Shown here: positions 8,482 to 64,000 of the stretch, in pieces
Layout of the letters: each line of letters opens with the position of its first letter
How positions within the stretch are numbered: position 1 is the first letter of the stretch
Source: Bacteroidota bacterium
GTDB taxonomy: Bacteria > Eisenbacteria > RBG-16-71-46 > SZUA-252
Assembly: GCA_050257045.1 (NCBI GenBank)
Contig: JBLMWD010000118.1
Location: 34,356 to 98,355 of the forward strand
Length of the DNA: 64,000 nt
Direction: 5' to 3'
Notes under the pieces: model-generated
Databases searched by the model: none
Told to the model about the DNA's origin: nothing
What the model saw: only the letters and a program-made list of their open reading frames with translations
Made by a program: the position numbers and the translations under genes

Positions 8482-9499
8482 CCCCGCCCCGAATCACCCG
8501 CCGCACCCCGAGCAGCACCGTCAACGCGACGATCACGATGACCAGGACCCACACGCGTCCGATCCACGCGTTCAGCGAGGCGGCCACCGCGCGCTGATCG
8601 GCTCCCGCGTGGAGGGGATCGGCGAGGACGATCCAGTCCGCCGCGCGGAGCGAGAGCGAGAACAGCACGAGGAACATCCCGCCGAAGGCGGCGTGGGCGA
8701 TCTCGCGGAATCGCGCCCAGCCGGGCCGGACGAGGTTGACCAGGGACGGGATCAGGCTCGCGGCCACGAGGACCAGGAACGGTGTGTAGAACGCGTTCCA
8801 GGCGGGCCCCATCCGCAGGAACCCGATCGCCTCGGGGCTGAAGATCGAGCGCACGACGTGTCGCACGGCAAGCCACCAGAGGAAGCCGACGATGCCGATG
8901 GTCAGCTCGAACACCGAGAGTAGCCGAGGCACCCGCGGGTAGGCCTTTCCGACGACGTGGATGGCAAGGGCGTCGAGCCCCCGCGCCCGGGGAGCCTCCG
9001 CCCGCGCCGGGAACGGAGCGCCGGTCGCGGGATCCCACTGGTCCGGATGCTTCGTCAGCCGCATCTGTGCGCCGACGAAGATGGCCGTCACGAGCGTGAA
9101 CTGGACCACGACGTTCCAGAGAACGGCGGAGAGGACCGATCCGAGGCCGTGCCGCGAGACCGACAGGGCGACCGCCGCGGCCAGCACGACGGCGGTCACG
9201 ATGCCGTTGATCGTGAGCACCTTGGCGTAGATCGGAAATAGCTCCGGCCCGATCCATTGCCGGCCGAAGGAAAGGGTCCCCCGCTCGCCGCGATACCGGC
9301 TCGCCACGATCATCGGGTGCCCGTGCGCCTTGAGGATCGCCTCCTGGTCGGCGCGCGTGAGCGGGTGCCCGATCTCCGCCTCCTTGTCCTCCATCTGCGA
9401 GCGGAGATTGTCCGAGAGCTCCCGGACGATGTCGTCACGCTGGTCCTTCGGCAGATTGGCTCTGACGACGCGCAGGTATTGCTCGAGCAATTCCATCAC
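8444..9499 (-). CDS. Membrane protein with N-terminal HAAS/DUF1700-like cytoplasmic domain (PadR-associated sensor-type partner)
   Basis: MMELLEQYLRVVRANLPKDQRDDIVRELSDNLRSQ is the helical domain typically encoded after PadR regulators, followed by 6 or more TM helices. ATGA overlap with the upstream PadR gene. Confidence 0.65.
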   Translation of the reverse strand: MMELLEQYLRVVRANLPKDQRDDIVRELSDNLRSQMEDKEAEIGHPLTRADQEAILKAHGHPMIVASRYRGERGTLSFGRQWIGPELFPIYAKVLTINGIVTAVVLAAAVALSVSRHGLGSVLSAVLWNVVVQFTLVTAIFVGAQMRLTKHPDQWDPATGAPFPARAEAPRARGLDALAIHVVGKAYPRVPRLLSVFELTIGIVGFLWWLAVRHVVRSIFSPEAIGFLRMGPAWNAFYTPFLVLVAASLIPSLVNLVRPGWARFREIAHAAFGGMFLVLFSLSLRAADWIVLADPLHAGADQRAVAASLNAWIGRVWVLVIVIVALTVLLGVRRVIRGGVSPVDPRKAGSP

Positions 9500-9858
9500 C
9501 GATTCTCCTTCACGATCCGGACGACGGAGGCGTGGATCCGCTGCATCTCATCGCACAGGAGGCCGAGGATCCGCTTTCCTTCCGCCGAGAGCCGGTAGAA
9601 ACGCTTGTTCCGCTTGTCCTCCTCCCGCCATTCGCTCTCCAGCAGCCCCTGCGACTCGAGACGCCGGAGGAGCGGGTAGAGCGTGTTCTCCTCGATGTCG
9701 AGGCCCTGCTCGGCCAGCGCCCTCCGGAGGGCGTAGCCGTAGCGCTCCTCGCGCAGATGGGCGAGCACGGCGACGATCAACGTGCCGCGGCGCAGCTCCA
9801 GGCGGAGGTTCTCGAACAGCTCAGAGTCGGTCTTCTGGGCGCGGTTCATGTGTACCAC
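9496..9858 (-). CDS. PadR family transcriptional regulator
   Basis: LIVAVLAHLREERYGYALRRALAEQGLDIEENTLYPLLRRLESQGLLESEWREEDKRNKRFYRLSAEG is the canonical PadR winged helix. GTG at 9858 or ATG at 9849. Confidence 0.85.
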   Translation of the reverse strand: MVHMNRAQKTDSELFENLRLELRRGTLIVAVLAHLREERYGYALRRALAEQGLDIEENTLYPLLRRLESQGLLESEWREEDKRNKRFYRLSAEGKRILGLLCDEMQRIHASVVRIVKENR

Positions 9859-9879
9859 ATACTGTATACCACACAGTAT
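9859..9879. promoter_or_regulatory. Perfect inverted repeat ATACTGT-N7-ACAGTAT immediately upstream of the PadR start; candidate PadR autoregulatory operator
   Basis: Read directly: catgtgtaccacATACTGTataccacACAGTATtgtttg. It is an AT-rich island in GC-rich DNA, and the palindrome geometry resembles PadR operators. Confidence 0.45.
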
Positions 9880-10012
9880 TGTTTGTCAAGAGGGGCGCGG
9901 CTCAGTGCTACCAAGGGCGCATTGTGGGTTGGCGCCCGCCAGCCGATGCTCCGCGCACGGGGGGACATCGGCAGACCTCGTTCACGGCATCCGGTCCGAG
10001 GAGGTATCCCCC

Positions 10013-10663
10013 ATGAAGCAGCGACTACTCCCCTCCGCGCTCGTCGTGTTCCTCGTCACGTTCCTCACGTTCCTGGCCTGGGCCTTTGGCCCGGCGCGAG
10101 GCGCGGTCGCCTATTCCGACACTCCGCCCATGAAGAAGACCGGCGGCCCCGGAGAAGGCACCTGCTCCTGCCACACTGGCGGCCTGAACGACGGCGTGGG
10201 GACGATCGCGATCACGAACGTTCCCGCGACCTACGTCCCGGGCCAGGCCTACACCGTCTCGGTGACGCTCGCCCGCGCGGGCCAGTCACGGTGGGGATTC
10301 GAGCTGACGTGTCTCACGGCCGCGGGGAATGCCGCCGGCACGATCGCGAACACGACCCCGTTCACGACGCTCCAGACGGGCTCGACCGGAAGGCAGTACA
10401 TCTCGCATACGACGGTGAATTCGCCGAGCGACGGCACGTTCGCGGGCACGGCGGACGGGCCGGTCACGTGGTCCTTCCAGTGGACCGCTCCGGCCCAGGG
10501 AGCGGGGACGGTGACCTTCTATGTGTGCGGGGTCGCGGCGGACAACAGCCTCGACGCGGACTCGGGGGACTTCGACTACACGACGTCGGTTTCCGCTGCC
10601 GAGGGCTCCTCGACGCCCGTGGCCGCCACCACCTGGGGGAAGATCAAGGCGTTGTACCGCTGA
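10013..10663 (+). CDS. Secreted hypothetical protein (Cys-containing, Thr/Gly-rich beta-rich domain)
   Basis: Internal ATG gives signal peptide MKQRLLPSALVVFLVTFLTFLAWAFGPARGAVA. GEGTCSCHTGG and a second Cys pair (CLTA...YVCG) are present. Ends ...TTWGKIKALYR. Confidence 0.6.
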   Translation: MKQRLLPSALVVFLVTFLTFLAWAFGPARGAVAYSDTPPMKKTGGPGEGTCSCHTGGLNDGVGTIAITNVPATYVPGQAYTVSVTLARAGQSRWGFELTCLTAAGNAAGTIANTTPFTTLQTGSTGRQYISHTTVNSPSDGTFAGTADGPVTWSFQWTAPAQGAGTVTFYVCGVAADNSLDADSGDFDYTTSVSAAEGSSTPVAATTWGKIKALYR

Positions 10664-11351
10664 TCACGACGCAGCAGCGGCCCGGAGCGGGGTCCAGCTC
10701 CGCCCGGGCGCGCGGCAGATCGAGACCCGCGATCAAGCCTCCGATGAGCGCCTGGTTCATGCCGCAGACGAGGCCCGGCGCCTCGGCCGCGAGCGCGTGG
10801 AATGGGCAATTCGCGAGGACGATGGTCCCGGACCGATCGCGCCGCGGCTCGAAGCCCGATTCACGGAGCGCCTCGATCGCGAGCTCGAGCAGGCGCGCGC
10901 GGCCCGTGCGCTTCCCCGCGCGTTCCCGGGCTTCCGCGCCGAGGCGCTCCCCCCACTGCCGGGCCGAGCGCAGGAGCGCCTCGCGGTTCCCGCGGGACCC
11001 GCCGCCCGCGAGAGCCCGCAGGAGCAGCCGGCCCGCCAGAACGTAGCGCCGCTCGGGCAGCGCGACCTCCACCGAGCGGTCCGCCCGCCGGTAGACCTTG
11101 CTCGGCCGCCCGGCTCCGGGGCCGCTCCGCCCCGAAAGGCGGCGGAACGACGCCTCGAGGATGCCCGCCTCGACCAGCTTGTCGAGATGGAACGCGGCAA
11201 GGGCGCGCGAGATCCGCAGCGCCCGGGCCGCCTGGTCGCGGCTCACCTCCCCGTCGGGTCCGACGAGGAAGTAGAGCTCCCGCCGGAGCGGCTCCTCCAG
11301 CGCCGCGATCCGGGCGATCTGCTCGCCGATTTCCGTCCTGCCTCGGTCCAT
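10644..11351 (-). CDS. Helix-turn-helix transcriptional regulator (ArsR/MarR-like wHTH with C-terminal Cys-containing domain)
   Basis: RELYFLVGPDGEVSRDQAARALRISRALAAFHLDKLVEAGILE is a wHTH. C-terminus has NCPFHALA...LVCGMNQ with conserved Cys. Confidence 0.7.
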   Translation of the reverse strand: MDRGRTEIGEQIARIAALEEPLRRELYFLVGPDGEVSRDQAARALRISRALAAFHLDKLVEAGILEASFRRLSGRSGPGAGRPSKVYRRADRSVEVALPERRYVLAGRLLLRALAGGGSRGNREALLRSARQWGERLGAEARERAGKRTGRARLLELAIEALRESGFEPRRDRSGTIVLANCPFHALAAEAPGLVCGMNQALIGGLIAGLDLPRARAELDPAPGRCCVVISGTTP

Positions 11352-29446: not shown

Positions 29447-29475
29447 TTGATTTAGGGGCGTGTTCGCGGTATAAT
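29447..29475 (+). promoter_or_regulatory. Sigma70-type promoter TTGATT-N17-TATAAT upstream of the giant S8 protease gene
   Basis: cTTGATTtaggggcgtgttcgcggTATAATcc has an exact -10 consensus, a 4/6 -35, and 17-nt spacer. It lies in the 249-bp divergent intergenic region, about 170 nt upstream of ATG 29648. Confidence 0.45.
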
Positions 29476-29647
29476 CCTCCCTTCACGCAAATCCCATCCC
29501 CCGTGGGTTCCGTTCGGCACGCTGACCGAGGAGGTGACCCCGCCCCAGGACCCCACCGTTCACCCCACGAGTGCATCCCGACGCATCGCGAACCATGCCC
29601 TAGCCGCGCTCGAGGCCGCGGCTCGAATCGTTCCATGGAGGTCAGGC

Positions 29648-37126
<7,479 letters not shown>

Positions 37127-54340: not shown

Positions 54341-56031
54341 GCCGCCGCGCCGCCCCCACATCCGTCGCGGCCCGCGCGCTCGTGGCCGCCCTGTGCCTCG
54401 CGCCCATCGCGACCCGAGCGCCCGCGGCGGCTGCCGCCGGCCGAGGCGTCACGATCGGCTCGAAGGCCTTCGCCGAGTCGTGGATCCTGGGCGATGCGCT
54501 CGCCTCGGAGATGCGCGCCGCCGGCGTGCCGCGCGTGGAGCACCGGCGGAACCTGGGCGGAACGGAGATCGTCCTCCAGGCGCTCCGCTCGGGCGACGTC
54601 GACGTCTATCCCGAGTACACGGGGACGATCCAGGAAGTGATCGTGAAGAGCCCGGGCACGACCGATCCGGAGGCGATGCGGCGCGCCCTGGCCGCGCTCG
54701 GTCTCGGGATGAGCGATCCGATCGGATTCGACGACAGCTACGCGGTCGCGGTCACGCCGGCGGCGGCCGAGCGCTACGGCCTGCACACCATCTCCGACCT
54801 CGCGAAACACCCCGAGATTCGGCTCGGGCTCACGCACGAGTTCCTGGGTCGTGCGGACGGCTTCCCCGGCCTCGCCGCGCGCTACGGCCTCTCGAACCGG
54901 AACGTGACCGGGATCCAGCACGAGCTCGCCTATGCGGCGCTCATGAGCGGCAGGATCGACGGAACCGACATCTACACGACCGACGCCCAGATCGAGCGGC
55001 TCGGGCTCCGCATCCTCGAGGACGACCGGCGATTCTTCCCGCGCTACGATGCGGTCTGGCTCTACCGGATCGACCTCGCGCGGCGCGAGCCGCGCGCGAT
55101 GCAGGCGATCCGACGGCTCACGGGGACCATCGACCGGGCGCGAATGATCCGCGCCAACGCGCGGGTGGTGCTCGGGGGTGTGAGCGCGGAGATGTCGGCG
55201 GACTCGCTTCTGGACGAGATTGGGGCGCCGGCAGCGGGCGGCGCCGGGGCGCCTGGAAACGCGGGTGCGTCGGGAGTCGTACCCGTTTCGCGCGCCGGCA
55301 CCAGCCGCGCGATCTCGATTGCGCGGAATACGGCGCAGCATCTGAAACTAGTGGCGCTCTCTCTTCTAGCCGCTGTTCTCATCGGCATTCCCCTCGGCAT
55401 CGCCGCCGCGCGCTCGCGCTGGATCGGCGGCACGGTGCTGGCCGTGACCGGCCTCGCGCAGACCATCCCCTCGCTTGCGCTCCTCGCCGTGCTCATCCCA
55501 CTCCTCGGGATCGGCGTGCTCCCGGCACTGGTCGCGCTCTTCATCTACAGCCTTCTGCCGATCGTCCGGAACACGTACGTGGGCCTCACCACCATCCCCC
55601 CGCCGCTCCTCGAATCGGCCTCCTGCCTCCCTCTTTCCGGCCGCACCCAGCTCCTCCGGATCCGCCTCCCGCTCGCCGCGCCCGCCATCCTGGCCGGCAT
55701 CCGGACGAGCGCCGTGATCAACGTGGGGTCGGCCACGCTGGCCGCCCTGATCGGCGCCGGAGGCCTGGGGGAGCCGATCCTGACCGGCATCCAGCTCCGC
55801 CGGACCGACCTGATCCTGGAAGGGGCGGTCCCGGCAGCCCTCCTCGCCCTCCTCGTGGAGCGGGGGTTCGATTGGATCGAACGGTTGGCCGTCCCGAGAG
55901 GGCTCCGGCCGGCGGCTTCGGCCCGCCGGGGGTTGGGGAGACAGGCCCCGCCCGATTCGTCTAGAATCGGGGGCGATTCCACCCTGGAGGCTGACCATGA
56001 CAAGCACGCTCCGATCGAGCGAAACCCCTGA
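54325..56031 (+). CDS. Fused quaternary-amine ABC transporter substrate-binding domain (N-terminal) and permease (C-terminal)
   Basis: N-terminal OpuAC-like SBP (GSKAFAESWILGDALASE...VDVYPEYTGT...). C-terminal 6-TM BPD permease with EAA-like loop (ESASCLPLSGRTQLLRIRLPLAAPAILAG). Overlaps both the upstream ATPase and downstream egtB. Confidence 0.85.
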   Translation: MERSVSRRAAPTSVAARALVAALCLAPIATRAPAAAAAGRGVTIGSKAFAESWILGDALASEMRAAGVPRVEHRRNLGGTEIVLQALRSGDVDVYPEYTGTIQEVIVKSPGTTDPEAMRRALAALGLGMSDPIGFDDSYAVAVTPAAAERYGLHTISDLAKHPEIRLGLTHEFLGRADGFPGLAARYGLSNRNVTGIQHELAYAALMSGRIDGTDIYTTDAQIERLGLRILEDDRRFFPRYDAVWLYRIDLARREPRAMQAIRRLTGTIDRARMIRANARVVLGGVSAEMSADSLLDEIGAPAAGGAGAPGNAGASGVVPVSRAGTSRAISIARNTAQHLKLVALSLLAAVLIGIPLGIAAARSRWIGGTVLAVTGLAQTIPSLALLAVLIPLLGIGVLPALVALFIYSLLPIVRNTYVGLTTIPPPLLESASCLPLSGRTQLLRIRLPLAAPAILAGIRTSAVINVGSATLAALIGAGGLGEPILTGIQLRRTDLILEGAVPAALLALLVERGFDWIERLAVPRGLRPAASARRGLGRQAPPDSSRIGGDSTLEADHDKHAPIERNP

Positions 56032-57316
56032 AGTCCTCGCGGCCCGGATGGCGGACGCCCGGGCGCGCACCGACGAGATCTTCAAGATCGTGAGCCCCGA
56101 CGCGCTCTACGAGCGGGCCATTCCCGAGCGCCACCGGCTCGCCTTCTATCTCGGACACGTCGAGGCGTTCGACGGCAACCTGCTCCGGCAGGCCTGGGAC
56201 CTCGCCTCGTTCAATCCTGTCTACGACAAGCTCTTCGCCTTCGGCATCGACCCCGTCGACGGCGCGCTCCCGAGCGAGGCCGCCGAGGTCTGGCCGCGGC
56301 CCGAGCCGATCCGGTCGTACAACGGCCGCATCCGCGAGGCCGTCGATGAATGCCTCGCCGGCAAGCGCCCGCTCGCCGCCGGGCACGACGCGGCGACGAT
56401 CCTCAACATGGCGATCGAGCACCGCCTCATGCATGCCGAGACGCTCGCCTATCTGATCCATCAGCTCCCCTACAAGGTGAAGCACGGGAAAGGGGATCCC
56501 CCCGCGCCGAAAGCCGCGGCCGGGGATCTCACGCGGAAGCTCCGCATCCCCGCCGGGAAGGCGACGCTCGGTCGGACGCGCTCGTCCGGCGTCTTCGGCT
56601 GGGACAACGAATTCCAGGAGAAGGCTGTCGACGTGCCGGCGTTCGACATCGATGCCCACAAGGTCACGAACGGCCAGTTCGAGAAGTTCGTCGAGGCGGG
56701 CGGCTACGAGAACAAGTCGTACTGGACCCCCGAGGACTGGGCCTGGAAGGAAGAGCAGAAGCTGAAGCATCCGTTCTTCTGGTCGAAGAAGGGCAAGGGC
56801 TGGAAGTACCACGGCATGTTCGCCGATTCCGATCTCTCCCCGAATGCGCCGGTTTACGTGAGCCACGCGGAGGCCGCCGCGTACGCGCGCTGGACCGGCC
56901 GCGCGCTCCCGACCGAGGGGCAGTTCCACCGCGCCGCCTACGGCACTCCGACGGGCGAGGAGCGCGAGTATCCGTGGGGGAACGAGCGCCCGGCCGAGAA
57001 GCACGGCAACTTCGACTTCCACCGCTGGGATCCGACGCCGGTCGGGTCGTATCCCGCGGGGGCGAGCGCATTCGGCGTGCAGGAGCTGGTCGGAAACGGC
57101 TGGGAGTGGACTTCGTCGGTGTTCGAGCCGTTCCCGGGCTTCGAGGCGCACCCCTTCTACAAGGGCTACTCGGCCGACTTCTTCGACGGGAAGCACTACG
57201 TGATGAAGGGGGGCTCGCCCCGGACCGCCGCGTGCATGCTGCGGCGGAGCTTCCGGAACTGGTTCCAGCCGCGCTACCCCTACGTCTACGCGTCCTTCCG
57301 CACGGTCGGAGTGTGA
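55997..57316 (+). CDS. egtB: Ergothioneine biosynthesis sulfoxide synthase EgtB (DinB_2 + FGE-sulfatase domains)
   Basis: N-terminal DinB_2 (HRLAFYLGHVEAFD...EHRLMHAETL) plus C-terminal FGE-like (GWDNE...YVSHAEAAAYARWTGRALPTEGQF...WEWTSS). 439 aa. Confidence 0.9.
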   Translation: MTSTLRSSETPEVLAARMADARARTDEIFKIVSPDALYERAIPERHRLAFYLGHVEAFDGNLLRQAWDLASFNPVYDKLFAFGIDPVDGALPSEAAEVWPRPEPIRSYNGRIREAVDECLAGKRPLAAGHDAATILNMAIEHRLMHAETLAYLIHQLPYKVKHGKGDPPAPKAAAGDLTRKLRIPAGKATLGRTRSSGVFGWDNEFQEKAVDVPAFDIDAHKVTNGQFEKFVEAGGYENKSYWTPEDWAWKEEQKLKHPFFWSKKGKGWKYHGMFADSDLSPNAPVYVSHAEAAAYARWTGRALPTEGQFHRAAYGTPTGEEREYPWGNERPAEKHGNFDFHRWDPTPVGSYPAGASAFGVQELVGNGWEWTSSVFEPFPGFEAHPFYKGYSADFFDGKHYVMKGGSPRTAACMLRRSFRNWFQPRYPYVYASFRTVGV

Positions 57317-58311
57317 CGCGCGGGAGCGGCGGCGGAGCGGGGCGCGCCGCTCCCGGCACCACCGGGGGGCTCGACGCCGGGCTGATCGCGGCGATCCGTG
57401 CCGGACTTTCGGGGCCCGGTCCGAAGACCCTCCCGCCGGCCCTCCTCTACGACGAGCTCGGGACCGCGCTCTTCGACGCGATCAGCGCGCTTCCCGAGTA
57501 CGGGCTGACGCGCGCCGACGAGCGGATCCTGCGCCGGCACGCTCCCGCGATTTCCCGCGCGATGGCGACGCCGCTCCTCGTGGCGGAGCTGGGGAGCGGG
57601 AGCGGACGGAAGACGCGCTGGATCCTGGATGCCCTCGCCTCGCGGCAGACCACGCACTACTTCCCCATCGACATCTCCGACACCGCCCTCGCGCGCTGCG
57701 CCGCCACGCTCGGGAAGCTTCCCGCGGTCCGATTCGACGGGATCCACGCCGATTATCTGGCCGGCCTTGCCGAGGTCGGCGCGCGGCGGCTCCCCGCGCA
57801 TCAGCTCCTCGTGCTCTTCCTCGGAAGCACGATCGGCAACTTCGAGCCCGATGCGGCGCGGAGCTTCCTCCGGTCCGTGCGCGCGACGCTGAAATCGGGC
57901 GACGCGCTGCTGCTCGGGACCGATCTCGTGAAGGCGGGACCGGTCCTCGTGCGCGCCTACGACGATCCGCTCGGCGTGACCGCCGCGTTCGACAAGAACG
58001 TGCTCGCGCGGATGAACCGCGAGCTGGGCGCCGCGTTCGACCTCGGCGCGTTCCGTCACGAGGCGCGCTGGCACGAGCGGGAGCGCCGGGTCGAGATGCA
58101 CCTCGTCGCGCGCCGCGCGGGCGAGGTCGTCGTGGCGGGGCTCGATCTGAGGGTGTCCTTCCGCGAGGGCGAGAGCATCTGGACCGAGAGCTCCTACAAG
58201 TTCGACCCCGAGGACGTGGTGAAGCTGGCGACGGCCGCCGGATTCGAGGTCGAGTCGCAGTGGACGGACGAGGAGTGGCCGTTCATCGAGTCGCTCCTGC
58301 GGGTGGAGTAG
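57313..58311 (+). CDS. egtD: L-histidine N-alpha-methyltransferase EgtD
   Basis: GTG start overlapping the egtB stop (GTGTGA). LLYDELGTALFDAISALPEYGLTRADERIL...ELGSGSGRKT...FLGSTIGNF are EgtD/methyltransf_33 motifs. Confidence 0.85.
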   Translation: MTRGSGGGAGRAAPGTTGGLDAGLIAAIRAGLSGPGPKTLPPALLYDELGTALFDAISALPEYGLTRADERILRRHAPAISRAMATPLLVAELGSGSGRKTRWILDALASRQTTHYFPIDISDTALARCAATLGKLPAVRFDGIHADYLAGLAEVGARRLPAHQLLVLFLGSTIGNFEPDAARSFLRSVRATLKSGDALLLGTDLVKAGPVLVRAYDDPLGVTAAFDKNVLARMNRELGAAFDLGAFRHEARWHERERRVEMHLVARRAGEVVVAGLDLRVSFREGESIWTESSYKFDPEDVVKLATAAGFEVESQWTDEEWPFIESLLRVE

Positions 58312-58315
58312 CGGG

Positions 58316-58684
58316 ATGCCGCGCCAGACGAACGATTACCTGCTGCGCCAGACCCGCGCGCTCGCGGCCATGCTGGCGCGGATCGCGGGATTCCGGGTCG
58401 CGGGCGAGGTCGAGGAGGCGCGGGACGAGCTCGAGCAGGCCTACGGGTTGCTGCTGGGGCCGCAGACCGATCTCGTGCGGCGGCTCGATCCTTCGACTGC
58501 AGCCGCCATCATGGGCTCGCCCGACCGGATGCTGCTGATGGCGCGATTGCTGGAAGAGGAGCGTCTGCAGGGTGGGGACGAAGCGCTCCACGCGCGCGCG
58601 GTCGCGCTCGTTCAGGAAGCGCTCCGGCGCGAGGCGGACAACGAGGATGCCAAGGCACTGCTCGTCGAGCTGACCACTCGCTGA
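58316..58684 (+). CDS. Small hypothetical helical protein downstream of egtD
   Basis: 122 aa starting 5 nt after the egtD stop. Protein-like composition (MPRQTNDYLLRQTRALAAMLARIAGF...). No family recognised. Confidence 0.35.
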   Translation: MPRQTNDYLLRQTRALAAMLARIAGFRVAGEVEEARDELEQAYGLLLGPQTDLVRRLDPSTAAAIMGSPDRMLLMARLLEEERLQGGDEALHARAVALVQEALRREADNEDAKALLVELTTR

Positions 58685-58696
58685 CGGAGCCGGAGC

Positions 58697-59899
58697 TCAC
58701 CTCTCCGGCGCGATTTCTCCCAACTCCCGAACGGCCCGCTCGAGCTGCTCGTCCTCGAGATACGGCGCCGGACCCATCCGAAGAAGCTCCCCACGGTAGT
58801 CCGTCCATACCGCCCGCTGTCGCAGCCTCCTGCAGACGTCGGCCGCGTGCGGGCTTTGGAGCGCGAGGAAACCGCCGATCCGATGGAGCGGAGTCGAGGC
58901 ATCACGTGCGATCCGGCGTCGATCCAGATCGAGCTCGTCGAACCGTTTCGCAAGCAGCCCGACCTGATGACGGCTGATCTCGCGAAGGCGCTCGGGCGTG
59001 AGTTTCTGCGCCTCGAAGAAATCGAACACGCGCGCGGCGCGGTAATGGCTGGTCGGATCGTACGTCGCGCCGGCCCAGCGGTCGGGGCCTTCGGCATAGG
59101 GCACGCGTCCGGCCGCGCGCCCGGTCAGGTGCGCGAACTCCCCAAACCAGCCGGTGATCAGCGGACGGTAGTCGCGGGCGTGGGACGGGACGCGGAGGAA
59201 GCAGTTTCCTTCCCCGAGCTGGCAGTACTTGTAGCCGCCGCCCACGACGAAGGCTTCTCCGAGCCCCTCGCCCTCGAGCGAGAACGGCACCACGTTCAGG
59301 TGGTGGTAGGCATCCACCAGGAGCTCGGCGCCGTGACGACGGCACGCTGCCGCAACCGAGCCGAGGCCGGGGACGATGGCGGCATTGCTGAACAAGACCG
59401 ACGAGGCCAGCACCGCGGACGTGCGTCCATCGACGACAGCGACGAGACGCTCCGCGATGGCGTCCGGCGGATCGACGGAGACCTTCACGACCTCGAGCAG
59501 CCGGTCCTCGGCGAGGCGGTCGAGCTGGCGGCGGATCGAGTGGAACTCGCCGTCGGTGGTCACGAGGCGCGGCCGCTCGCGGAGCGGGAGCGCCGAGAGG
59601 AAGCGGACGACGAGCTCGTGGGTGTTCGCGCCGAGAGCGACCTCCTCGGGGTTGCCACCGAGGAGCCGCGCGAAGCCGCGGCGCACGCGATCGGCCTTCT
59701 CCGCGGCGCGGCCCCACTTTTCGTCCGCCAGCTCCGCGGCGTCGTTCCAGGCCTCCACCTGCCCCTCGAAGGCGACGTCCGGCCAGGCCTGGTGGGAGTG
59801 ACCGGTGAGGAGAATCCGCTCGGAGACGCGGAAGCGCGTGTAGTGGCGGGCCAGAGCCCCCGGCGAGCCCTGCGAGCCGGAGATCACATCAGCTCCCAT
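58697..59899 (-). CDS. kynU: Kynureninase (PLP-dependent, aminotransferase class V fold)
   Basis: ILLTGHSHQAWPD..., class-V fold motifs. Located directly downstream of kynA in the same operon. Confidence 0.7.
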   Translation of the reverse strand: MGADVISGSQGSPGALARHYTRFRVSERILLTGHSHQAWPDVAFEGQVEAWNDAAELADEKWGRAAEKADRVRRGFARLLGGNPEEVALGANTHELVVRFLSALPLRERPRLVTTDGEFHSIRRQLDRLAEDRLLEVVKVSVDPPDAIAERLVAVVDGRTSAVLASSVLFSNAAIVPGLGSVAAACRRHGAELLVDAYHHLNVVPFSLEGEGLGEAFVVGGGYKYCQLGEGNCFLRVPSHARDYRPLITGWFGEFAHLTGRAAGRVPYAEGPDRWAGATYDPTSHYRAARVFDFFEAQKLTPERLREISRHQVGLLAKRFDELDLDRRRIARDASTPLHRIGGFLALQSPHAADVCRRLRQRAVWTDYRGELLRMGPAPYLEDEQLERAVRELGEIAPER

Positions 59900-59932
59900 T
59901 CGTGGACGTGATCCGCCTCCTCCGGATGCAGC

Positions 59933-60715
59933 TCATAGTTCCGTCCGAATGGTCCAGAGGTCGGGGAAGAACGGCTTGTCGAGGGTCGTCTTGAGGTAGG
60001 CCGCGCCCTCCGATCCGCCCGTCCCCTGCTTCGCGCCGATCGTCCGCTCCACCATCTTCACGTGGCGGTAGCGCCACTCCTGCATTCCCTCGTCCAGGTC
60101 GACCATCCGCTCGCAGAGCGACGAAGTCATCGGGTCCTTGCGGTAGACCTCGATGAGGACGCGGTGGAGCTCCGGCGCGGCAACGACCGGCTTCGTCACG
60201 TCGCGACCCAGGAGCTCGAGAGGCACGTCGTAGCCCTGTGCCGTGAGATAGCGCAGGAACGCGTCCCACACCGTCGGCTCGGAGGCGCGCCGCTCGAGGC
60301 GCTTCCGCGCGTCGCTCCCCTCGGGATAGCGCGCGAGCGCCGCGTCGCTCCGCATCCCGAGCAGGAACTCGAGCTCGCGAAACTGGAACGACTGGAACCC
60401 GCTCCCCGACTCGAGCCGCGCGCGGAAGGTGAGGAACTCGAGCGGCGTCATCGTTTCGAGCACGTCGATCTGGGCGACCACGACCTTGAGGATCGTGAGG
60501 ACGCGCTTCATCGTGTGCAGCGCGCGCGGCAGGTCGTTGGCCGCGAGGCGCCCTTTCAGGTAGTCGAGCTCGTGCAGCATCTCCTTGAACCAGAGCTCGT
60601 AGACCTGGTGCACCACGATGAAGAGCGTCTCGTCGTGCTCGGGTCCTTCGGAGAGGGGCTGCTGGAGCGCGAGGAGCTCGTCCAGTTTCAGGTAGCTGCC
60701 GTAGGTCACCGCCAT
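59933..60715 (-). CDS. kynA: Tryptophan 2,3-dioxygenase
   Basis: SYLKLDELLALQQPLS...DETLFIVVHQVYELWFKEMLHEL...FRELEFLLG...YRHVKMVERTIG are the conserved TDO motifs, including the heme-ligating His region. Confidence 0.85.
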   Translation of the reverse strand: MAVTYGSYLKLDELLALQQPLSEGPEHDETLFIVVHQVYELWFKEMLHELDYLKGRLAANDLPRALHTMKRVLTILKVVVAQIDVLETMTPLEFLTFRARLESGSGFQSFQFRELEFLLGMRSDAALARYPEGSDARKRLERRASEPTVWDAFLRYLTAQGYDVPLELLGRDVTKPVVAAPELHRVLIEVYRKDPMTSSLCERMVDLDEGMQEWRYRHVKMVERTIGAKQGTGGSEGAAYLKTTLDKPFFPDLWTIRTEL

Positions 60716-60746
60716 CGCGCCTCCTTGGGCGACCGCCCGCGCTCCG

Positions 60747-62999
60747 TCAGGAGAAGCGGGGGCGGTACTGGTTCAGCGATTCGTAGGGATCCGGCCACGG
60801 CAACGCGTATCCGAGCTCGAAGGCCGCGTGCCGGGTCCAGTACGGATCCCAGAGGTGGGCCCGCGCGAGCAGGCAGAGGTCCGCCCGTCCCGCCGCGAGG
60901 ATCGTGTTCACGTCGGCGTACGACGAGATGTTCCCGACGGCCATCGTGGCGATCCCCGCCTCGTGGCGGATCCGGTCGGCGAACGGCGTCTGGAACAGGC
61001 GGCCGTAGACCGGGCGCTGGTCGGGCACGGTCTGCCCCGCCGAAACGTCCACGATATCGCAACCCTTCGCATTCAGCATCCGCGCGACCTCGACCGAGTC
61101 CTCCGGCGCCATGCCGCCGGGCTTCCAGTCGACGGCGGAGATGCGGACCGACATCGGCCGCTCATCGGGCCAGACCGCGCGCACGGCCGCGAAGACCTCG
61201 AGCGGGAAGCGCATCCGGTTCTCGAGGGAGCCGCCGTATTCGTCGGTGCGGAGGTTCGTGAGCGGCGAGATGAAACTCGCGAGAAGGTAGCCGTGCGCCA
61301 TGTGGATCTCGAGGAGATCGAATCCGGCCTGCACCGCCCGACGCGCCGCGTCCGTGAACTGATCCCGCACTTCGTCCATGTCGGCACGGGTCATCTCGCG
61401 CGGGGTTTGGCTGTGCGGAAAGTACGGGATCGGCGAGGGGGCGATGATCGGCCACCCTCCGTGCTCGAGCGGCTCCGCGTCGCCCTCCCACGAGAGGCGG
61501 GTCGAGGCTTTCCGCCCCGCGTGGCCGAGCTGCACCGCGATTTTTGTGTTTTGCATTTTGTGTACAAAATCCACGATGCGCTTCCACGCTGCGGCATGCG
61601 CGTCCGACCAGAGCCCGGCGCACCCCGGCGAGATCCGTGCCTCGGGGCTCACGTCGGTCATCTCCACGAAGACGAGACCGGCCCCTCCGACGGCGCGCGA
61701 GCCGATGTGGACGAGGTGCCAGTCGTCGGGCATCCCGTCCACGGCGGAGTACTGGCACATCGGCGAGACGACGACCCGGTTCGAGAGCACGAGGTCTCGG
61801 ATCCGGAACGGCGTGAACATCGGCGGGGGCGCGGGGTGGCGCGGAACGGGCTTCCCCGACTGCTCCTCGGCCTCCTCCGCGAACCACGTGTCCACGCGCT
61901 CCGTGAAGCCGGGGTCGCGCATCCGGAGATTCTCGTGCGTGACGCGCAGGCTGCGCGTGATCAGCGTGAAGGCGAACTGGAGCGGCTCGAGGCTCATGTA
62001 GCGCTCGGTGTCCTCGAACCACTGCAGCGAGGCCTGGGCCGCGCGCTGCAGGCTCTCGACGGGCGGACGCCGCGCCGCCTCGTAGGCGGCGAGCGCGTCG
62101 GGGATCGACGGCTCCCGCCGGAGCGCCTCGACCAGGGCCACCGAGTCCTCCATCGCAAGCTTCGTCCCCGAGCCCACCGAAAAATGCGCCGTGTGCGCGG
62201 CGTCCCCGACCAGCACGATGTTCCGCCACGACCAGCGCTCGTTCCGGATCGTCGGGAAGCTCCGCCAGATCGAGCGGTTCGCGAGCAGCCGGTGGCCCGC
62301 GAGCTCCTCCGCGAAGAGCCGCTCGCAGAAGGCGAGCGTGTCGGCCTCGCTCGCGTCCGCGAGCCCCGCCTTCCGCCACGTCTCCTCGCGCGCTTCCACG
62401 ATGAACGTCGAGCGGTCCGGCTCGTACTGGTAGGCGTGCACCCGCCAGAGGCCGTTCGCGTCATTCTTGAAGTAGAACGTGAATGCCGGGAACGGCTTCG
62501 TCGTTCCGAGCCAGACGAACTTGTTCGGCCGGACATCCACGACCGGACGGAAGTGCTCGCGATAGCGCTCGCGCACGGGCGAATTCACGCCGTCGGCTGC
62601 GAGGATCAGGTCGGCGCCGTCGAGCGAGGCCGGGTCGGCCACCTCGCGCTCGAAGCAGACGTGCACGCCGGCCTCACGGCAGCGGCCGGCGAGGACTCCG
62701 AGGAGCGCCGCGCGCGAGAGCCCGGAGAAGCGGTGCCCGGTCGAGGTGATGGTCTCGCCGCGGTAGTGGATCTCGATGTCGTCCCAGCGGTGGCACCGCG
62801 CCGACGTCGCGGCGGCGACCTCGGGGTCGGCGACGGCGAGCGCCTCCTCGGTGGCGTCGGAGAAGACGACGCCGAAACCGAACGTGTCGTCCGGGCGGTT
62901 CCGCTCGTAGACGGCGATCTCGTGGCGCGGATCGGCGCGCTTCAGGAGGAGCGCGAAGAAGAGCCCGGCCGGCCCGCCGCCGATGACCGCGGCCCTCAT
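60747..62999 (-). CDS. Fused FAD-dependent aromatic monooxygenase + Old-Yellow-Enzyme-like NADH:flavin reductase (2-aminobenzoyl-CoA monooxygenase/reductase-like)
   Basis: N-terminus [19 protein letters not shown] (FAD GxGxxG), DG/GD motifs of class A flavin monooxygenases. C-terminal half [26 protein letters not shown]...[17 protein letters not shown] is the OYE TIM-barrel. ATGA overlap with the upstream acyl-CoA dehydrogenase. Confidence 0.75.
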
Positions 63000-64000
63000 G
63001 GCCGGGCCTGCAGCACCTGTCCCGCGATCACGAGTCGCTGGATCTCGGTCGTCCCCTCGTAGATCCGGAGCGCGCGCACGGCTCGATACAGGCGGTCCAC
63101 CGGGTGGTCCGCCATCACGCCGCGCGCGCCGAGGATCTGAACCGCCTCGTCCACGATCCGCTGCGCCGCCTCGGTGGCGAACGACTTCGCCATCGCGGCC
63201 TCCATCGTAACGCGCTCGGCGCCGTGGTCGGCCTCCCAGGCGGCGCGATAGACGAGGAGGCGCGCCGCGTCCAGATCGGTCGCCATGCGCGCGATCTTCT
63301 CCTGGACGAGCTGGAACTCGGCGAGCGGCTTCCCGAACTGCGCGCGCGAGCGGGCGTGGCGCGCGGCCTCGTCCAGCGCGCGCGCGGCCATGCCGCAGGC
63401 GGCGGCCCCGACCGTGGCCCGCATACGGTCGAGCGTCTTCAGGCCGAGCGCGAACCCGCGCCCCTCTTCGCCCAGGAGGTTCGCCGCGGGCACGCGGCAC
63501 TCCTCGAACGCGATCGCGCCGAGGGGATGCGGCGCCGACAGGACCTGCGCTCCCGAAAACCGCAGCCCCGGCGCGTCGGCCGGAACGAGGAACGCCGAGA
63601 TCCCCTTGCCTCGCGCCGCGGGATCGGTGGAGGCGAAGACGACGTAGAAGTCGGCGATTCCCGCGTTCGAGATGTACGTCTTAGATCCGGCGAGGACATA
63701 GTCCTCGCCGTCGCGCCGCGCGCTCGTGCGAAGCGCGGCCACGTCCGAGCCGGCCTCGGCCTCGGTCATGGCGAACGCGGCGATTGCGCGCCCCGCGATC
63801 GCGTCCTCGGCGAAGCGCGCCCCCGCCGGCGTACCGGTCTGGAGCAGCGGCAGCGTCCCGAGCCCCTGAAGCGCAAAGACCGCGTCGGCGAGCGGGCTCG
63901 CCGCGGCAAGCGCCTCGCGCGCGATGCAGCAGGCGCGCCAGTCGCCCTGACGGATGGGCTCGAGGAGCCTCGCGCCGCCGAGCAGGCCGAGGATCGCGCG
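62996..64000 (-). CDS. Acyl-CoA dehydrogenase (C-terminal part; gene continues beyond window end)
   Basis: [48 protein letters not shown]...[15 protein letters not shown] are ACAD middle and C-terminal domain signatures. Upstream in-frame sequence continues to the window edge. Confidence 0.8.

Follow-up and report, generated by a model that had tools for sequence, protein, structure and literature searches.

The new analysis of a 64,000-nucleotide stretch of contig JBLMWD010000118.1 (hereafter the window), which comes from a metagenome-assembled genome (MAG), indicates that positions 58697-64000 very probably form the 3' half of a catabolic operon in which L-tryptophan would be converted to anthranilate and then degraded aerobically through coenzyme A (CoA) thioesters, a so-called hybrid route. 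The four genes encode an acyl-CoA dehydrogenase (ACAD), a fusion of a flavin adenine dinucleotide (FAD) monooxygenase with an Old Yellow Enzyme (OYE) reductase, a tryptophan 2,3-dioxygenase (TDO) and a kynureninase-like pyridoxal phosphate (PLP) enzyme. The original prediction, made from the sequence alone, had read the kynurenine genes beside the fusion as catabolism from tryptophan to anthraniloyl-CoA, and this reading is supported by conserved synteny, by a ligase gene in relatives and by a fusion tree without clustering of the sdg-like (salicylyl-CoA hydroxylase) kind. The operon is a variant of a known pathway cluster and not a new kind of system, since annotation pipelines already name its genes (nearly) correctly. 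What appears to be new is the joining of two pathways in one operon, together with an unusual kynureninase; in the literature searched, no paper was found that combines kynurenine genes and the anthraniloyl-CoA pathway in one cluster.

In the proposed scheme, TDO would oxidise tryptophan to N-formylkynurenine, from which a formamidase that was not recognised in the window would remove the formyl group to give kynurenine. The kynureninase-like enzyme would then cleave kynurenine to anthranilate and alanine, and an enzyme of the benzoate-CoA ligase family, encoded by a divergent gene in relatives, would produce anthraniloyl-CoA. Subsequently, the FAD domain of the fusion may hydroxylate the ring para to the amino group, and its OYE domain, which carries flavin mononucleotide (FMN), may reduce the product to the non-aromatic 2-amino-5-oxocyclohex-1-ene-1-carbonyl-CoA. 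A RidA-family protein, an enoyl-CoA hydratase (ECH), an SDR-family protein and the ACAD would finally deaminate this compound, open its ring and carry out beta-oxidation. Gene families, operon structure, synteny and the conservation of catalytic motifs are observed, and every substrate and product in the scheme is predicted.

The aerobic CoA-dependent anthranilate route has been known from Azoarcus since the 1990s and has counted as an oddity of a small number of Proteobacteria and Actinobacteria. To our knowledge, the steps that follow the dearomatised intermediate in the 2-aminobenzoyl-CoA route have never been elucidated. The present locus suggests that the anthraniloyl-CoA route is hard-wired to tryptophan catabolism, as a nine-gene unit, in abundant and mostly uncultured soil phyla (Gemmatimonadota, Eisenbacteria, Limnocylindria), and it supplies a compact and conserved set of candidate genes for the lower pathway, along with a divergent family of kynureninases and a candidate formamidase.

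Operon structure and conservation in relatives

The region contains four co-directional open reading frames (ORFs) on the minus strand of a window with about 70% G+C, and all four genes that had been predicted are present (Table 1). Direct reading likewise bears out the predicted ATGA overlap between the ACAD stop codon TGA and the fusion start codon ATG (...cggccATGAgggcc), from which we infer translational coupling of the two genes. The fusion-TDO and TDO-kynureninase-like junctions measure 31 and 33 nt, with AGGAGG/GGAGGAGG upstream, and no internal terminator stands out in the operon, where 4 terminator-like sites compare with 1.8 +/- 1.5 in shuffles. Full-length relatives of the ACAD have 381 aa, so that the window end cuts off about 47 N-terminal codons; the protein is presumed to be a beta-oxidation-like enzyme of the lower pathway.

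Table 1 Features of the operon within the window (all positions in window coordinates)
Feature	Position	Strand	Size and evidence
Acyl-CoA dehydrogenase (ACAD), partial, 3' part	62996-64000	-	334 aa visible; Pfam Acyl-CoA_dh_M and Acyl-CoA_dh_1
ATGA overlap of ACAD stop and fusion start	62996-62999	-	Direct reading of the sequence
FAD-monooxygenase/OYE fusion	60747-62999	-	750 aa; Pfam FAD_binding_3 (residues 3-318) and Oxidored_FMN (394-726)
Fusion, N-terminal class A FAD monooxygenase domain	61962-62999	-	About aa 1-346; FAD_binding_3, VioD structures
Fusion, C-terminal OYE (YqjM/XenA-type) FMN reductase domain	60774-61826	-	About aa 392-742; Oxidored_FMN, OYE structures
Tryptophan 2,3-dioxygenase (TDO), haem	59933-60715	-	260 aa; PF03301, 215 bits
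Divergent kynureninase-like PLP enzyme	58697-59899	-	400 aa; KYNU_C, 29 bits, the sole significant Pfam match

Support for a functional unit comes from relatives. Scanning species-representative genomes gave the 80 closest loci (60-80% identity, gene presence scored by tblastn), mostly from Gemmatimonadota and Eisenbacteria and also from Limnocylindria, Acidimicrobiia, Acidobacteriota and Planctomycetota. They reveal a nine-gene unit in which a divergent aryl-CoA ligase gene faces genes for a creatininase-family protein, SDR, RidA, ECH, ACAD, fusion, TDO and kynureninase-like enzyme, in this order, with ACAD directly upstream of the fusion. The unit is complete in 36 of the 46 fully assessable loci, which belong to Eisenbacteria, Gemmatimonadota, Limnocylindria, Acidimicrobiia and Acidobacteriota. 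The kynA/kynU adjacency that had been noted in the window is conserved as well: where the lower pathway and downstream coverage are present (49 related loci), TDO occurs in 44 and the kynureninase-like gene in 47. Because the gene order recurs in dozens of loci and several phyla, the arrangement is not a matter of chance.

Four close relatives (L001, L002, L088 and L089), whose fusions are 87% and kynureninase-like proteins 80% identical to those of the window, all carry the nine-gene operon. In L088 and L089 the other flank of the window is shared too, with a 121-aa ORF, EgtD-like and EgtB-like genes, an OpuAC-type ABC transporter and, in L088, a DNA ligase; on account of these shared flanking genes, the window contig almost certainly continues into the same upstream genes. 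The original prediction had expected a CoA ligase and a formamidase beyond position 64000. The ligase part is supported by relatives including L088 and L089, in which a gene of the benzoate-CoA ligase family lies just upstream (476 bits against TIGR02262, cutoff 375), whereas no canonical formamidase was found there. The relatives' ECH also passes its model, NF006107, with 366 bits against a cutoff of 330.

The TDO/kynureninase-like pair, or the kynureninase-like gene alone, lies upstream of the ligase in L015, L028, L042, L055 and L074, and in about 10 loci, mainly from Planctomycetota, Alphaproteobacteria, Rokubacteria and Polyangia, the surroundings of the fusion are unrelated. L066, where a TDO lies about 6 kb from a solitary fusion, was uninformative. 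Two loci from Gemmatimonadota (L044, L081) have the lower pathway, TDO and the kynureninase-like gene, with both the creatininase-family gene and the ligase absent within 3 kb upstream, so that the divergent creatininase/ligase pair seems to move as a unit. A further variant is found in L045, where an extra OYE-like gene (PF00724, about 490 aa, 9362-10837) between ACAD and fusion adds a second flavin reductase to the operon; the same insertion occurs in L040, L046, L049, L050, L054, L057 and L064, which form a subclade dominated by Gemmatimonadales.

The fusion protein and its substrate

The reading of the 750-aa ORF as a class A FAD monooxygenase joined to an OYE barrel is borne out by Pfam, structure matches and NCBIfam alike. 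Specifically, the protein passes NF006101 (bifunctional salicylyl-CoA 5-hydroxylase/oxidoreductase) with 1152.3 bits against a cutoff of 1078, residues 1-742 matching profile positions 1-748 of 768, and its Oxidored_FMN domain scores 229 bits. Residues 1-346 match VioD structures (3C4A/8GQR, E 1e-54) and the C-terminal half matches YqjM/XenA-type OYE structures (E 1e-100); among solved structures, the search returned matches to the halves only and none to the full length. The FAD motifs GGGPAG, DG..S and GDAAH are conserved, and the OYE motifs SPMCQYS and HMAHGYL are present with His-x-x-His-x-Tyr intact. We take the latter two to correspond to Cys26, His164, His167 and Tyr169 of YqjM.

The architecture had been called rare, which it is not: in addition to the NF006101 match, the protein search returned at least 8000 homologues (the nearest 87-95% identical), and full-length copies occur on 238 plasmid records, haloarchaeal ones included, with no Aromatoleum record among them. 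A 95%-identical homologue is named anthraniloyl-CoA monooxygenase by JGI, the name under which KEGG K09461 is listed in another paper. The exact window proteins are held at NCBI as MGE5179813-15 on a 101-kb MAG contig, where PGAP names them kynureninase, tryptophan 2,3-dioxygenase and bifunctional salicylyl-CoA 5-hydroxylase/oxidoreductase.

The fusion was compared with reference proteins that are proxies defined by gene context, namely abm-type (Ralstonia, Phyllobacterium) and sdg-like (pAL1, pSCAT) fusions. In a midpoint-rooted neighbour-joining (NJ) tree of 87 fusions, the window clade is a separate branch, sister to the abm-type and sdg-like sequences combined, and the window fusion is about 55% identical to the Ralstonia type and 55-57% to the pAL1/S. 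cattleyicolor type. Catalytic motifs were tried as a discriminator between the 2-aminobenzoyl-CoA monooxygenase/reductase (ACMR) type and the SdgC type and were set aside, the FAD and OYE motifs being the same in all three clades; the sole systematic difference lies at the YqjM Cys26 position, which is Cys in the window clade, Ala in the abm-type and Asp in the sdg-like fusions. With motifs alike and a clade of its own, the fusion cannot be assigned to either ACMR or SdgC chemistry from its sequence.

The substrate 2-aminobenzoyl-CoA is thus assigned from gene context, because the fusion clade lies apart from both reference types. This context points to anthranilate, since TDO and kynureninase together produce it, and the partner genes of the fusion indicate a beta-oxidation-like fate. 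The fusion is therefore presumed to be an anthraniloyl-CoA (2-aminobenzoyl-CoA) monooxygenase/reductase, and the name of its NCBI family, 'salicylyl-CoA 5-hydroxylase', probably misleads in the case of this clade. The proposed match to the Azoarcus evansii-type enzyme is supported at the level of family and architecture; the fusions of the window clade do not, however, cluster specifically with the abm-type proxies but form a third clade.

Tryptophan 2,3-dioxygenase and the kynureninase-like enzyme

The TDO exceeds the PF03301 cutoff (34.9) by a wide margin and scores 290 bits against TIGR03036, below the cutoff of 390.7. Among solved structures it is most similar to Cupriavidus TDO (2NOX, E 8e-58), in an alignment that runs from end to end and keeps the motifs FIVxHQ, FQFRE and WRxRH, which hold the distal His, the substrate Arg and the proximal His. 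The protein is predicted from its sequence to convert L-tryptophan to N-formylkynurenine.

The kynureninase-like protein is more divergent. It fails TIGR01814 (19 bits, cutoff 246.4), and a cysteine-desulfurase-like model gives 22.9 bits; its KYNU_C domain passes the Pfam cutoff. A profile of 29 homologues searched against the Protein Data Bank (PDB) matches Pseudomonas fluorescens kynureninase 1QZ9 with E 5e-15 over residues 13-398, and the next match, of desulfurase type, has 4e-4. The same structure is the top Foldseek match of the AlphaFold model (pLDDT 80), with SufS/NifS nearly equal. Invariant among the 29 homologues are the PLP lysine Lys224 (YKY), Asp196 at the pyridine nitrogen, Arg374 for the carboxylate, Trp251 and Phe119; Trp62 and Ala278-Thr279 are conserved too and align to P. 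fluorescens Trp64 and Gly281-Thr282. Lima and co-workers reportedly described in 2009 that these positions tell kynurenine-preferring from 3-hydroxykynurenine-preferring enzymes, and the residues seen here would be the kynurenine-preferring signature. From these data we infer a functional kynureninase of a distinct family, which would convert L-kynurenine to anthranilate and L-alanine. The predicted identity of kynU thus agrees with the closest solved relative and with the retained active-site residues, although the protein lies far outside the canonical family (19 versus 246 bits).

Clustered at 50% identity, this family has about 313 representatives at E<=1e-30, and some sources name homologues selenocysteine lyase or cysteine desulfurase. 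With TDO it forms an independent two-gene module that is paired in many lineages. The pair stands alone in L094 (9222-11200, Ignavibacteriales) and L095 (9231-11197), with no ligase, fusion or creatininase-family gene nearby, and a 664-aa ORF in L096 (234-2228), on a 4-kb metagenome contig found in two samples, fuses TDO to the kynureninase-like enzyme. Other candidate TDO fusions sought as Rosetta stones were rejected: the N-terminus of P0244 is a creatininase domain and not TDO, and P0328 and P0275 look like frameshifted read-throughs. On a Streptomyces goshikiensis plasmid (NZ_CP108579.1; L090 6479-10179), TDO and a 62%-identical kynureninase-like gene lie inside an enediyne chromoprotein biosynthetic cluster, divergent from a benzoate-CoA-ligase-family gene, which suggests a tryptophan-derived anthraniloyl-CoA building block.

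A candidate for the formamidase step

Translated in all six frames, the whole window shows no KynB-type motif HxGTHxDxPxH, and the annotated operons of L001, L002, L088 and L089 contain no cyclase-family (KynB) gene. A possible substitute is the relatives' creatininase-family protein, a metal amidohydrolase by family, which scores 185 bits in Pfam and does not reach the cutoff of the MftE, creatininase or IolN model. Creatininase motifs are shared around the presumed metal-ligand positions of 1Q3K. The creatininase family also includes the ring-opening diketone hydrolase IolN, and it contains a formamide hydrolase, ArfB.

Gene context speaks on both sides. None of the three genes for the creatininase-family protein, TDO and the kynureninase-like enzyme is present in the proteobacterial abm clusters, and in L093 (10001-11977) a 658-aa ORF combines in one frame a creatininase-family domain (36% identical to that of the operon) with a kynureninase-like domain (57%). 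This ORF ends a cluster with the order fusion, SDR, ECH, ACAD, RidA and ligase, with no TDO nearby; it may be an assembly artefact, because its contig, with 47% GC, has many split genes and frameshifts. Against a formamidase role, the creatininase-family gene remains beside the lower-pathway genes in L026, L055 and L064, in which TDO and the kynureninase-like gene are missing or have changed place, and the TDO/kynureninase-like pair occurs elsewhere without it. Creatininase-family homologues gave no match on plasmids of cultured bacteria, and no paper linking a creatininase-family protein to formylkynurenine was found in the literature searched.

The creatininase-family hydrolase is thus a tentative candidate for the kynurenine formamidase, and we consider the assignment likelier to be wrong than right. 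A still bolder version, in which a complete route from tryptophan to central metabolism is built from non-canonical parts (a separate kynureninase family that escapes TIGR01814, a third, creatininase-type kind of formamidase and an invariant lower-pathway set), is doubtful and on balance unlikely. If it were true, the lower 2-aminobenzoyl-CoA pathway would have as its enzymes those of the invariant set, namely the creatininase-family protein, SDR, RidA, ECH and ACAD.

Alternative explanations

Several observations weigh against a route from tryptophan through anthraniloyl-CoA. The kynureninase-like protein falls short of the canonical kynureninase model, and its predicted fold fits SufS/NifS desulfurases almost as well as kynureninase; TDO remains under its equivalog cutoff; and neither the window nor the relatives' operons contain a canonical formamidase. 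The window fusion clade is not nested with the abm-type proxies in the NJ tree, nor do catalytic motifs separate the three fusion clades. Moreover, relatives are the sole source for the ligase and the remaining upstream genes, the window itself showing ACAD as the sole lower-pathway partner.

Three other explanations were considered. The fusion might act purely as an SdgC-like hydroxylase, forming 5-hydroxyanthraniloyl-CoA (or gentisyl-CoA from salicylyl-CoA) that is then de-esterified and cleaved by a ring dioxygenase, with no dearomatising reduction. PGAP and NF006101 do name the family after salicylyl-CoA 5-hydroxylase, the pAL1/S. cattleyicolor fusion adjoins a thioesterase-like gene, a cupin and (in pAL1 only) an FAH-family hydrolase, and the window fusion is about as similar to the sdg-like as to the Ralstonia type. 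The loci of the window clade, however, lack thioesterase, cupin dioxygenase and FAH genes and are invariably linked to SDR, RidA, ECH and ACAD instead, the OYE motif His-x-x-His-x-Tyr is intact, and the NJ tree does not group the window fusion with sdg-like sequences, a grouping that would have spoken for salicylyl-CoA hydroxylation; we consider purely hydroxylating chemistry very improbable. That TDO and the kynureninase-like enzyme serve biosynthesis, either of nicotinamide adenine dinucleotide (NAD) via 3-hydroxykynurenine or of an anthranilate-derived secondary metabolite, and neighbour the aryl-CoA cluster incidentally, is very improbable. The S. goshikiensis enediyne cluster, with its benzoate-CoA-ligase-family gene, and the genomes in which the pair stands alone would fit such a role, but the adjacency of the pair to the fusion and lower-pathway genes is kept in five or more phyla, and the junctions are short or overlap. 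In addition, the operons of L001, L002, L088 and L089 contain no gene for kynurenine 3-monooxygenase, 3-hydroxyanthranilate dioxygenase, a polyketide synthase or a non-ribosomal peptide synthetase, and the Trp62/Ala-Thr signature fits kynurenine-preferring enzymes.

Finally, the 400-aa PLP protein might be another enzyme of the class V fold, such as a desulfurase, a lyase or an aminotransferase acting on a pathway intermediate. The 19 bits against TIGR01814 compared with 22.9 for the cysteine-desulfurase-like model, the close Foldseek scores and the names given to some homologues all lean this way. Set against them are the end-to-end family profile match to 1QZ9 (5e-15, versus 4e-4 for the best desulfurase-type chain), the KYNU_C domain above its Pfam cutoff and the near-obligate linkage to TDO, one fused ORF included (L096), which together make this explanation very improbable. 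Kynureninase-dependent tryptophan catabolism by way of anthraniloyl-CoA therefore remains the preferred reading of the operon.

Comparison with known clusters

The aerobic CoA-thioester route for anthranilate has been published for A. evansii, Arthrobacter Rue61a and Cupriavidus SHE (PMC4539516, PMC3534580, PMC6221969). According to a review, Cupriavidus SHE needs an abm-type cluster to degrade anthranilate (PMC6221969), and the pAL1 ligase has been shown experimentally to be an anthranilate-CoA ligase (PMC3534580). For fusion and ligase, the chemistry proposed here follows the summaries that PMC4539516 and PMC3534580 give of the studies on A. evansii.

Abm-type clusters on the Ralstonia solanacearum megaplasmid and a Phyllobacterium plasmid contain fusion, SDR, MarR, ECH, ACAD, ligase and RidA genes, to which Ralstonia adds a thioesterase and Phyllobacterium ABC transporter genes. 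Presumably this gene set matches the A. evansii abm cluster, which Schuhle and co-workers reportedly described in 2001 as comprising a ligase, ACMR, three beta-oxidation enzymes, a 'translation inhibitor' (RidA-family), MarR and a binding protein. The window-type operon shares with these clusters the NF006101/K09461 fusion family and the ligase, SDR, ECH, ACAD and RidA partners, and its chemistry is presumed to be alike; identity to the Ralstonia proteins is 48% for ECH, 49% for ACAD (full length, via the L001 orthologue), 43% for SDR, 39% for RidA and 36% for the ligase. All these partners accompany the fusion in L001, L002, L088 and L089 and in the majority of the 80 representative loci. The window-type operon differs in gene order, in having neither a MarR regulator nor an ABC binding protein, and in the addition of TDO, the divergent kynureninase-like enzyme and the creatininase-family hydrolase. 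Its fusion falls into a separate clade (about 55% identity) with Cys in place of Ala at the YqjM Cys26 position, and its hosts are mostly uncultured Eisenbacteria and Gemmatimonadota.

The sdg-like clusters of Arthrobacter pAL1 (L083 4481-11394) and Streptantibioticus cattleyicolor pSCAT (L087 5240-11193) consist of RidA, separated from cupin, thioesterase-like, ligase and fusion genes. An FAH-family hydrolase is present in pAL1 and not in pSCAT, and both are without ECH, ACAD and SDR. They agree with the window clade in the fusion family and its NCBIfam model, and likewise in having a RidA gene and, next to the fusion, an AMP-forming ligase. The window clade, in contrast, has ECH, ACAD and SDR, carries Cys where the sdg-like fusions have Asp at the Cys26 position, and in none of its loci does a thioesterase-like, cupin dioxygenase or FAH-family gene accompany the fusion. 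As a separate observation, the partner genes of the pAL1 fusion and the lack of beta-oxidation genes there hint that it may feed ring cleavage of 5-hydroxyanthranilate rather than an Azoarcus-type route.

Like the kynA-kynB-kynU pathway, the operon has a TDO, whose haem and substrate residues are conserved, and after it a PLP hydrolase with the kynureninase fold. Unlike that pathway, its kynU equivalent lies outside TIGR01814, it has no KynB (cyclase-family) gene, and its kynurenine genes share one operon with anthranilate-consuming genes instead of feeding anthranilate dioxygenase or standing alone.

Neighbouring genes

A 122-aa ORF without Pfam match (58316-58684, plus strand) runs towards the kynureninase-like gene, with 12 nt between their stop codons. 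In L088 a 121-aa gene occupies the equivalent place, and in L089 it lies farther from the kynureninase-like gene by two genes. Beyond it, between 53582 and 58311, an ergothioneine-type pair stands beside an OpuAC-permease fusion with its ABC ATPase. An EgtB-like protein with FGE-sulfatase and DinB_2 domains (55997-57316) and an EgtD-like histidine methyltransferase (about 57350-58311) make up this pair. This EgtB/EgtD/OpuAC block is syntenic in L088 and L089.

Further away, a giant ORF of 2555 aa (29456-37123, plus strand) combines an S8 subtilase domain and a fervidolysin-like prodomain with many Ig-like repeats (HYDIN/ASH/Cep192-type), a NIDO domain and a FlgD-Ig domain. As to the source of the DNA, the MAG bears the label 'Bacteroidota bacterium', but the window has about 70% G+C, and on the closest relatives the labels read Eisenbacteria, Binatia, Omnitrophota or Limnocylindria; the taxonomic labelling of such MAGs appears unreliable.

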